A stretch of DNA of 9,155 bases from Escherichia coli (GTDB taxonomy: Bacteria; Pseudomonadota; Gammaproteobacteria; Enterobacterales; Enterobacteriaceae): the NCBI RefSeq assembly GCF_003334315.1, contig NZ_QOWR01000091.1. The stretch is one strand, 5' to 3'. Positions 573 to 1,524 of the stretch are shown here, piece by piece. Position 1 is the stretch's first letter, and each line of letters begins with the position of its first letter. The notes under the pieces are model-generated. The model ran no database searches. It worked only from the letters and a program-made list of their open reading frames with translations, and was not told the origin of the DNA. The position numbers and the translations under genes were made by a program.

Positions 573-1205
573 TTATATTAATTCATATAATTTGGCGTAG
601 TCGATAAGCTCTACAATTGAATGCAAACCTAGCTTGCCATAAATATTAGATTTATGCGCACTAACTGTTTTATTGCTAAGTAATAATTTATCGGCAATTT
701 CTTTATTAGATAATCCGCTAACCAGATAACGTAATATGGTCACTTCACGATTAGATAGCACAGTGATCGTTGAACTATTCGTACTACATTTATTGCTTTT
801 TATATAGTTAAGCGTTTCGCTAGGAAAAAACGTGTATCCGGAGAGGATCATCTGAACGGCATGAAAAATATCATTCTGATCATTGCATTTACTGACAAAA
901 CCGTTAGCACCAGCTTGTATCGCTCTGCCAGCATAAAAGCATTCTGATTTCGATGATAAAAATAACACTTTCACTGTGCTCTGGATTTGTTTGATCCTTT
1001 TCAGGAAGGTAAAACCGTCTGTTCCGGGCAAGTCTATATCCATAATGATTAAATCAACAGGACGGGTTCGGAGATAATCGATGGTTATGCGGTAATCATC
1101 CGTTTTCAGGACAATCTGCAATTCACTGTTTTTTTGCAACAGAACTTCAATAGACATTCTGATGATAGGATGAGTATCCATAATGATCACCGACGTTGGT
1201 TTCAT
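573..1205 (-). CDS. fimZ: FimZ, LuxR/NarL-family response regulator (receiver domain plus C-terminal LuxR-type HTH), 210 aa
   Basis: The track ORF 573..1268 (231 aa) contains the 210-aa protein starting MKPTSVIIMDTHPIIRMSIEVLL at the internal ATG at 1203-1205, which matches FimZ as I recall it. It has a receiver-domain Asp cluster (IIMDIDLPGTDG) and a LuxR HTH (LSNREVTILRYLVSGLSNKEIADKLLLSNKTVSAHK). Start choice follows the K-12/Salmonella 210-aa length; upstream ATGs at 1218-1220 and 1266-1268 are possible but lack a good SD. Confidence 0.9.
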   Translation of the reverse strand: MKPTSVIIMDTHPIIRMSIEVLLQKNSELQIVLKTDDYRITIDYLRTRPVDLIIMDIDLPGTDGFTFLKRIKQIQSTVKVLFLSSKSECFYAGRAIQAGANGFVSKCNDQNDIFHAVQMILSGYTFFPSETLNYIKSNKCSTNSSTITVLSNREVTILRYLVSGLSNKEIADKLLLSNKTVSAHKSNIYGKLGLHSIVELIDYAKLYELI

Positions 1206-1388
1206 AGTTACCAGTCTCATAGGAGCGGACAATTTTCCGTTAGGGCGGTAAATTGTACTTTGATACATGAAAATACGGGTTTTCTTGATTCAGACGCGCA
1301 GCGGTGTGCGTTTGTTTGCCACTATAGCGAAATAAATCAGAAAATCAGACGCGGTCGTTCACTTGTTCAGCAACCAGATCAAAAGCCA

Positions 1389-1416
1389 TTGACTCAGCAA
1401 GGGTTGACCGTATAAT
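1389..1416 (+). promoter_or_regulatory. Near-consensus sigma70 promoter for argU: -35 TTGACT (1389-1394), 16-bp spacer, -10 TATAAT (1411-1416)
   Basis: Read directly from the sequence: TTGACT then 16 bp then TATAAT, about 31 bp upstream of the mature tRNA 5' end at 1448. Predicted transcription start near 1423-1424. Confidence 0.6.
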
Positions 1417-1447
1417 TCACGCGATTACACCGCATTGCGGTATCAAC

Positions 1448-1524
1448 GCGCCCTTAGCTCAGTTGGATAGAGCAACGACCTTCTAAGTCGTGGGCCGCAG
1501 GTTCGAATCCTGCAGGGCGCGCCA
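1448..1524 (+). tRNA. argU: tRNA-Arg (anticodon UCU, reads AGA/AGG), 77 nt with encoded CCA
   Basis: Cloverleaf readable by eye: acceptor stem GCGCCCT/AGGGCGC, D-arm AGCTCAGTTGGATAGAGC, anticodon stem-loop ACGAC-CUUCUAA-GTCGT with UCU at positions 34-36, T-arm GGTTCGAATCC, discriminator G and CCA at 1522-1524. Matches argU (dnaY) as I recall it. Confidence 0.95.

Follow-up and report, generated by a model that had tools for sequence, protein, structure and literature searches.

Rare arginine codons of Escherichia coli fimZ follow its base composition, with a conserved AGA/AGG codon at position 16 and a probably weak link to the neighbouring tRNA gene argU

Introduction

The fimZ-argU locus of Escherichia coli raises the question whether a fimbrial regulator depends for its translation on a rare transfer RNA (tRNA) encoded next to it. 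We studied this locus in a stretch of 9,155 nucleotides of contig NZ_QOWR01000091.1 (assembly GCF_003334315.1), hereafter the window. On its minus strand lies fimZ (573-1205), a coding sequence (CDS) with a GC content of 36.2% that encodes a LuxR/NarL-type response regulator of 210 amino acids (aa), and divergently from it, on the plus strand, lies argU (1448-1524), the gene of the tRNA-Arg with anticodon UCU. A first interpretation of this locus, made from the letters of the window (hereafter the sequence-only reading), had noted that three of the eight Arg codons of fimZ are AGA or AGG, codons read by the argU tRNA, and had proposed that fimZ output may be coupled to the availability of that tRNA. 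As to the decoding, that statement was too narrow, since AGG is also read by tRNA-Arg(CCU), the product of argW.

The rare codons of fimZ and its proximity to argU are already published. According to Garcia-Contreras et al. (2008; PMC2408971), AGA and AGG exceed their genome frequency in E. coli fimZ, which also contains six ATA codons; the authors pointed out its location by argU and drew the parallel to Salmonella fimU. The same study described Hha as a repressor of rare-codon tRNAs, including argU, and the E. coli fim genes and fimZ as rich in AGA, AGG and ATA. The gene and the observation are the same here, and our counts agree with theirs, down to the six ATA codons. However, genome-wide codon usage was the only comparison in that study, whereas we compared fimZ with composition-matched genes and with its orthologues, and examined the conservation of individual codon positions. 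What is added here by direct observation concerns computed counts, composition nulls, gene order, the deletion and site-specific conservation.

We arrive at an explanation in three parts, to which, taken whole, we assign a probability of roughly 0.6: the number of AGA/AGG codons in fimZ is that set by its base composition, its adjacency to argU is an inherited gene order compacted by deletion, and its coupling to argU is weak. The last part in particular is a judgement from sequence comparison, by which translational coupling of FimZ to argU in E. coli is probably weak.

The number of rare arginine codons in fimZ follows its base composition

By computed count, the eight Arg codons of fimZ comprise three CGT, one CGC, one CGA, two AGA and one AGG. 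The rare ones are Arg16 (AGA, 1158-1160), Arg70 (AGG, 996-998) and Arg94 (AGA, 924-926), all on the minus strand and exactly where the sequence-only reading had placed them. Its description of fimZ as AT-rich beside the nfr genes was borne out as well, with 36.2% GC as against 55.1% in nfrA and 52.4% in nfrB; the four genes envY, ybcH, nfrA and nfrB jointly contain two AGA/AGG among about 150 Arg codons. The fimZ of the window differs from that of K-12 at five nucleotides, none of which falls within the AGA/AGG codons.

To judge these counts we used annotated genes of K-12, and hereafter write AGR for AGA or AGG. The rate in ordinary genes was taken from 83 annotated CDS in two arbitrary 50-kb regions, chosen regardless of their content, where 76 of 1368 Arg codons (5.6%) are AGR; at this rate the probability of at least three AGR among eight Arg codons is 0.008. 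The full background comprised 180 annotated CDS with RefSeq coordinates from four regions. A background built from longest open reading frames (ORFs) was dropped, as shadow ORFs inflated AGR use in the GC-rich bins. Across the annotated genes the AGR share climbs as GC content falls, from 5% above 50% GC to 15% at 46-50%, 25% at 42-46% and 54% (69/127) at or below 38%. At the share of this lowest bin, which includes fimZ, the probability of at least three of eight becomes 0.90. When fimZ was left out, the eleven other sampled genes with a GC content of at most 40% had AGR at 67 of 121 Arg codons (55%), compared to 37.5% in fimZ, and 15 of the 180 CDS showed an enrichment at least equal to that of fimZ. 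We also modelled the expected AGR number of each gene from its own base frequencies at four-fold degenerate third positions; the 14 fimZ orthologues described below contain 46 AGR codons among 145 Arg codons, and 42.1 were expected.

The enrichment is therefore real when set against the genome average, yet base composition explains it in full, and the AGR share of fimZ, if anything, lies under that of its composition class. Thus, what the sequence-only reading had claimed about enrichment holds against the average gene and fails against genes of matched composition, and the gene-wide codon count that it had proposed as a check turned out essentially against it. The arrangement of the codons in E. 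coli fimZ is also sparse: AGA16 is the sole AGR within the first 25 codons, the other two are at codons 70 and 94, and there is neither a tandem nor a cluster. Three AGR among eight Arg codons would then be the usual load of a foreign-type gene of 36% GC, with the codon classes at Arg70 and Arg94 drifting freely.

Rare Arg codons are a feature of the whole AT-rich cluster and not of fimZ alone. Among the structural genes of the sfm operon in K-12, AGR accounts for 2/4 Arg codons in sfmA, 4/11 in sfmC and 3/9 in sfmF, but for 3/48 in sfmD and 1/12 in sfmH. In Kosakonia and a related lineage, fimZ has a tandem AGA-AGA at codons 69-70, where E. coli has AAA-AGG. Ribosomes are known to stall at tandem AGA-AGA if tRNA-Arg(UCU) is in short supply.

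The argU adjacency points to an old gene order compacted by deletion

argU was the single tRNA detected by ARAGORN (Arg, anticodon TCT), with an Rfam match to RF00005 at 72 bits, and its sequence is identical to that of K-12 argU. The gap between fimZ and argU measures 242 bp (1206-1447), in line with the distance of about 240 bp in the sequence-only reading, and an Rfam search of this spacer found no RNA gene besides the tRNA. A near-consensus sigma-70 promoter for argU, TTGACT-16-TATAAT, lies at 1389-1416 on the plus strand and agrees with the consensus at 11 of 12 positions. The identity of fimZ is equally firm: the NCBIfam FimZ equivalog NF007403 matches residues 1-210 of 210 at 446.5 bits (cutoff 271), the gene is annotated as fimZ by RefSeq in matching genomes, and precomputed domains of proteins identical or near-identical to FimZ of the window are the PF00072 receiver and the PF00196 GerE/LuxR helix-turn-helix.

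For comparison, fimZ loci were collected from 13 further species by protein search and exact-protein contig look-ups, plus E. albertii. A scan of genome contigs for FimZ relatives with a peptide pattern was dropped; it was swamped by generic NarL-type regulators and yielded only E. albertii. The orthologues in the resulting 14 species are all 210 aa long. A tRNA-Arg(UCU) gene lies divergently 1.9-3.2 kb upstream of fimZ in Salmonella, Citrobacter koseri, C. braakii, Kosakonia, Scandinavium, Lelliottia, Huaxiibacter and another lineage of the Enterobacteriaceae; outside Escherichia the interval holds fimY and, in addition, fimW, a gene with an EAL domain (stm0551 in Salmonella) or the two together. 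Only about 250 bp separate the tRNA from fimZ in the two Escherichia species, E. coli and E. albertii. Altogether, 10 of the 14 species have a divergent tRNA-Arg(UCU) gene no more than 3.2 kb from fimZ; in Cedecea, an Enterobacter sp., Buttiauxella and Dryocola, which form one clade, the cluster is elsewhere and no tRNA is encoded within 5 kb. Where the upstream sequence of a metagenomic lineage extended over at least 3.5 kb, the tRNA lay 1.7-3.1 kb upstream in 19 of 20 cases, bringing the linkage to about 29 of 34 lineages.

When the window was aligned by blastn with the Salmonella and Citrobacter loci, matches were confined to 1355-1527, that is, the tRNA and about 95 bp on its promoter side, and to the sequence from 1209 downwards. 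The argU promoter falls inside the first of these segments. Over argU and its promoter side the window is about 82% identical to Salmonella fimU, which identifies argU as the orthologue of fimU. Between the two matching segments, 1210-1354 (no strand assigned) is specific to Escherichia, with no homology detectable by blastn to the loci of Salmonella, Citrobacter or Kosakonia, and it occupies the place that in other genera is taken by fimW, the EAL gene, fimY and the native upstream region of fimZ. This gap in homology and the gene maps of the other genera therefore indicate that Escherichia lost fimW, the EAL gene and fimY, together with the ancestral fimZ upstream region. The closeness of argU and fimZ is, on this comparison, best described as an old gene order compacted by deletion, not as an arrangement built around fimZ.

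The proposed history would start from a cluster of the Salmonella type, in which tRNA-Arg(UCU) is followed by the divergent fimW-EAL gene-fimY-fimZ and then by the convergent fimF-H-D-C. In Escherichia a deletion took out everything from fimW to fimY, along with the native region upstream of fimZ, and left fimZ 242 bp from the tRNA; fimZ would be the surviving regulator of an ancestral enterobacterial fimbrial cluster. The other flank has kept its layout: in the window fimZ (stop codon 573-575) converges on a remnant of sfmF that ends at 570, and in every other sampled species fimZ likewise converges on the gene that ends a chaperone-usher operon (fimF/sfmF).

Another explanation of the adjacency would be that the AT-rich fimbrial cluster is an island that integrated at argU, with the tRNA gene as its landing site. 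argU is a known attachment site, in K-12 the prophage DLP12 and its integrase lie immediately 3′ of it, Kosakonia has an integrase gene 3′ of its own copy of the tRNA, and fimZ and the sfm genes are AT-rich. However, in every genus the fim/sfm cluster is found 5′ of the tRNA, on its promoter side, whereas integrases and prophages are on the 3′ side, and we rejected the island on this orientation. Moreover, the order is common to Escherichia, Salmonella, Citrobacter, Kosakonia, Scandinavium, Lelliottia and many metagenomic lineages, as expected of an old vertical order and not of insertions that recurred. We regard integration of the cluster at argU as very improbable.

Codon 16 is AGA or AGG in nearly all orthologues

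FimZ proteins of the sampled orthologues are 66-80% identical, and at identical residues their codons agree in only about 40-50% of cases; synonymous sites are therefore near saturation. Against this background codon 16 is AGR in 13 of the 14 species, while the other Arg positions vary. We extended the comparison by scanning metagenome contigs with a degenerate pattern in which the flanking codons were fixed and codon 16 was free. The scan returned 108 matches, with AGA in 90, AGG in 15 and CGC in three. These were merged with the species set and thinned to 50 sequences less than 97% identical to each other, 36 of which were ascertained through their conserved flanks; branch lengths were taken from a simple distance tree. 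In this set 48 of 50 sequences have AGR at codon 16 (AGA 38, AGG 10), with one parsimony switch. Codon 70 is AGR in 37 of 46 with seven switches and codon 94 in only 7 of 49 with four, and at other Arg sites we counted seven switches (codon 107) and five (codon 153).

On a neighbour-joining tree, we fitted a two-state model to the remaining Arg sites and simulated it 20,000 times. For a site-specific preference at codon 16 the likelihood-ratio statistic was 22.4, and none of the 20,000 simulations reached the observed count (P < 5e-5), which puts AGR at this codon well above the level expected from phylogeny and composition. The same model gave no site-specific signal at codon 70 (statistic 0.01, P = 0.27). 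In the 14-species set, which is free of the ascertainment through flanks, the statistic for codon 16 was 10.05 (P = 0.0023 per site, about 0.016 allowing for seven sites). Among the orthologues, then, a rare Arg codon is found at a fixed position for codon 16 and not for codons 70 and 94, whose codon classes are labile in evolution, and of the three AGR codons of fimZ only codon 16 looks selectively kept. Relative to the published report on the rare codons of fimZ, this site-specific conservation appears to be new. Any dependence of E. coli FimZ output on argU would rest mainly on this lone 5′-proximal AGA16 and would probably be small.

Codon 16 lies in a 5′ stretch of raised synonymous conservation

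Codon 16 should not be taken for a plain rare-codon signal, because codons 1-20 (window 1146-1205) are synonymously conserved as a whole. Synonymous codon identity in this block is 0.66, compared to 0.45 overall (permutation P = 0.012), and without Escherichia codons 5-20 reach 0.74, with 0.46 as the comparison. Codons of the block that are not rare are near-fixed too, for example CCT13 (13/14), GTC15 (11/12) and ATT8 (13/13). The conserved stretch begins at the Shine-Dalgarno sequence, of which GAG is invariant; other genera have GAGGCA-N6-7-ATG and E. coli has GAGAC. According to the alignment of upstream regions, GAGA at 1215-1218 on the minus strand of the window is a weakened remnant of the conserved GAGG. 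In the fimZ genes outside Escherichia, the conserved stretch takes in the rare ATA19 and also TCG18.

The preferred explanation would have AGR16 kept as part of this stretch, which runs from the Shine-Dalgarno sequence up to around codon 20. In its strict form, that the conservation of codon 16 reflects a nucleotide constraint of the translation-initiation region or a cis element, from the Shine-Dalgarno to about +60 and unrelated to the decoding tRNA, the idea draws on the same block: its raised identity, the fixed codons that are not rare and its start at the Shine-Dalgarno sequence. We nevertheless consider this strict form improbable. No conserved RNA structure was found around the fimZ start (consensus energy -5.5 kcal/mol, negligible covariation, z-score of 0.12 for E. 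coli). In addition, codon 16 varies freely at its third base, and the two Escherichia species have lost the conservation of the block (codon identity to the others 0.44 and 0.30), yet both retain AGR16. The A/G toggle at codon 16, the ATA at codon 19 and the retention of AGR16 in the diverged Escherichia favour a cause related to decoding.

The position of the fimZ start matters for this numbering. The fimZ ORF extends in frame up to an ATG at 1268 (231 aa; additional window segment 1206-1268), a start used by some automatic gene calls, and the extension holds a further in-frame ATG-AGA at 1215-1220. We rejected the start at 1268, as the sampled orthologues are all 210 aa long and conservation begins at the Shine-Dalgarno sequence before the ATG at 1205; the extension is probably untranslated.

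Does argU supply limit FimZ synthesis?

Several observations speak against a weak coupling between fimZ and argU. The third base of codon 16 alternates between A and G (AGA 38, AGG 10) and CGN almost never appears there, and near-universal AGR at this codon is the pattern that would be expected from selection for a codon read by tRNA-Arg(UCU). Three codons downstream, the rare Ile codon ATA is kept at codon 19 in 10 of the 14 species, compared with an ATA share of 20% overall. The sole lineage with CGC16 (Dryocola and a metagenomic relative) falls in the only clade without a linked tRNA, a single event that is no more than a hint. Hha was reported to bind the fimZ-argU locus and to repress argU (PMC2408971), and argU in MG1655 is a single, essential and tightly regulated transcription unit whose own promoter is insufficient on a plasmid (PMC11480407).

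Taken at full strength, these observations would mean that the supply of tRNA-Arg(UCU) throttles FimZ synthesis, chiefly via AGA16 and helped by AGG70 and AGA94. Shifts in argU transcription, through Hha/H-NS at the shared AT-rich spacer or through growth rate, would then tune FimZ, and the linkage of the tRNA to the cluster, seen in about 29 of 34 lineages, would reflect the coupling. The mechanism does exist in this cluster, in Salmonella fimY with its AGR at codons 7, 9 and 14, and extra rare tRNAs relieve the block that Hha imposes on fimbriation (PMC2408971). However, that rescue used a plasmid with four tRNAs, and type 1 (fimA) fimbriae were assayed, not FimZ. E. coli fimZ has just one AGR in its first 25 codons and none in tandem or clustered, its AGR count equals the expectation from composition, and the codon class is labile at 70 and 94. 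Because a tRNA acts in trans, the mechanism does not require the adjacency, and three related lineages without a linked tRNA still have AGA16. On balance, a real throttle of this kind seems unlikely to us.

A narrower version would place a slow-decoding site at FimZ codons 16-19 (AGR16 in 48/50 sequences, ATA19 in most genera) that is selectively maintained across the Enterobacteriaceae and makes FimZ synthesis sensitive to tRNA-Arg(UCU) supply, with E. coli keeping the AGA16 half of it after the loss of fimY. This version, derived from codon conservation, is equally doubtful. Under the explanation that we prefer, a modest tRNA-linked effect at codon 16 may still occur.

The comparison with Salmonella bears directly on this point. 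Reviews (PMC11316696, PMC6527747) that summarise the work of Swenson et al. (1994) and Tinker and Clegg (2001) on the control of FimY by fimU state that Salmonella fimY has five rare Arg codons, three of them before codon 14, that FimY production fails without fimU, that fimU deficiency affects FimY only, and that exchange of the first three rare codons of fimY restores FimY and fimbriae. By our count, the AGR codons of Salmonella fimY are at positions 7, 9, 14, 94 and 222, and Salmonella fimZ has AGA at codons 16, 94 and 97. Since recoding of fimY alone restores fimbriae in a fimU mutant and FimZ is required for the activation of fimA in Salmonella, FimZ would be made adequately in spite of its AGA codons, as far as the reviews go (PMC11316696, PMC6527747). 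E. coli and Salmonella share the orthologous tRNA gene, the fimbrial cluster, FimZ and regulators with rare AGA/AGG codons. They differ in that fimY, the proven target, is deleted in Escherichia, and the AGR codons of fimZ are single and dispersed. The argument of the sequence-only reading from Salmonella, where fimU was said to be required for fimbrial regulators, thus keeps its orthologous tRNA and its FimY, but the effect is limited by the reviews to FimY, which is gone from E. coli.

Two further systems offer a scale. In uropathogenic E. coli, leuX, which encodes the tRNA-Leu for the UUG codon, controls FimB (Ritter et al., 1997, as cited in PMC2408971). There, as proposed for fimZ, translation of a fimbrial regulator is limited by a minor tRNA in whose codon the regulator is rich; the tRNA, the codon and the regulator are different, and leuX-FimB is backed experimentally, whereas fimZ-argU is a proposed link. 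The minor-codon modulator idea, reportedly put forward by Chen and Inouye in the 1990s, concerns AGA/AGG near the start of E. coli genes. AGA16 lies in the zone of the first 25 codons for which the largest effect of AGA/AGG was proposed, but strong effects belong to multiple or tandem AGA/AGG, and from a lone AGA only a small one would be expected.

Other features of the window

The stretch from the 3′ end of sfmF through fimZ and argU (454-1526) matches K-12 at 99.2% by blastn. To the left of fimZ, positions 1-453 are the end of an IS1 element, 100% identical to K-12 IS1I by blastn, which cuts sfmF so that only its last 38 codons are left (454-570, plus strand, by blastn with K-12). The sfm operon beside fimZ is thus disrupted by IS1 in this strain, and one RefSeq genome (EcPF16) matches across the IS1-sfmF junction.

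To the right, argU is followed by envY, ybcH, nfrA and nfrB. At the 3′ end of argU, 1477-1526 on the plus strand is an unoccupied attachment core of DLP12, defined as the overlap of two K-12 matches, one on the sfmF-fimZ-argU side and one on the right flank of DLP12, between which K-12 has 21 kb of prophage. The window is without this 21-kb prophage (appY, ompT), and envY comes directly after argU (1477-1570), a junction that many E. coli genomes share. At 8862-9155, past the nfrB start, lies part of a transposase gene of the H-repeat/ISAs1 type that is 97% identical to K-12 ydcC; K-12 has cusS in this place.

Discussion

The sequence-only reading of this locus is partly supported: the counts and the neighbouring tRNA stand and the conservation of codon 16 speaks in its favour, while the gene-wide enrichment does not hold against composition-matched genes and the observation had been published before (PMC2408971). 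The gene-wide signal is a side effect of the AT-rich composition of fimZ, as is usual for foreign-type genes, and the lesson for method is that rare-codon enrichment should be judged against composition-matched genes. The conserved AGR at codon 16 is a small lead, and the only part worth following up. If argU supply did gate FimZ, this regulator, which is tied to fimbriae, motility and biofilm, would gain a translational input, and the lasting attachment of a minor tRNA gene to the fim cluster would be easier to explain.

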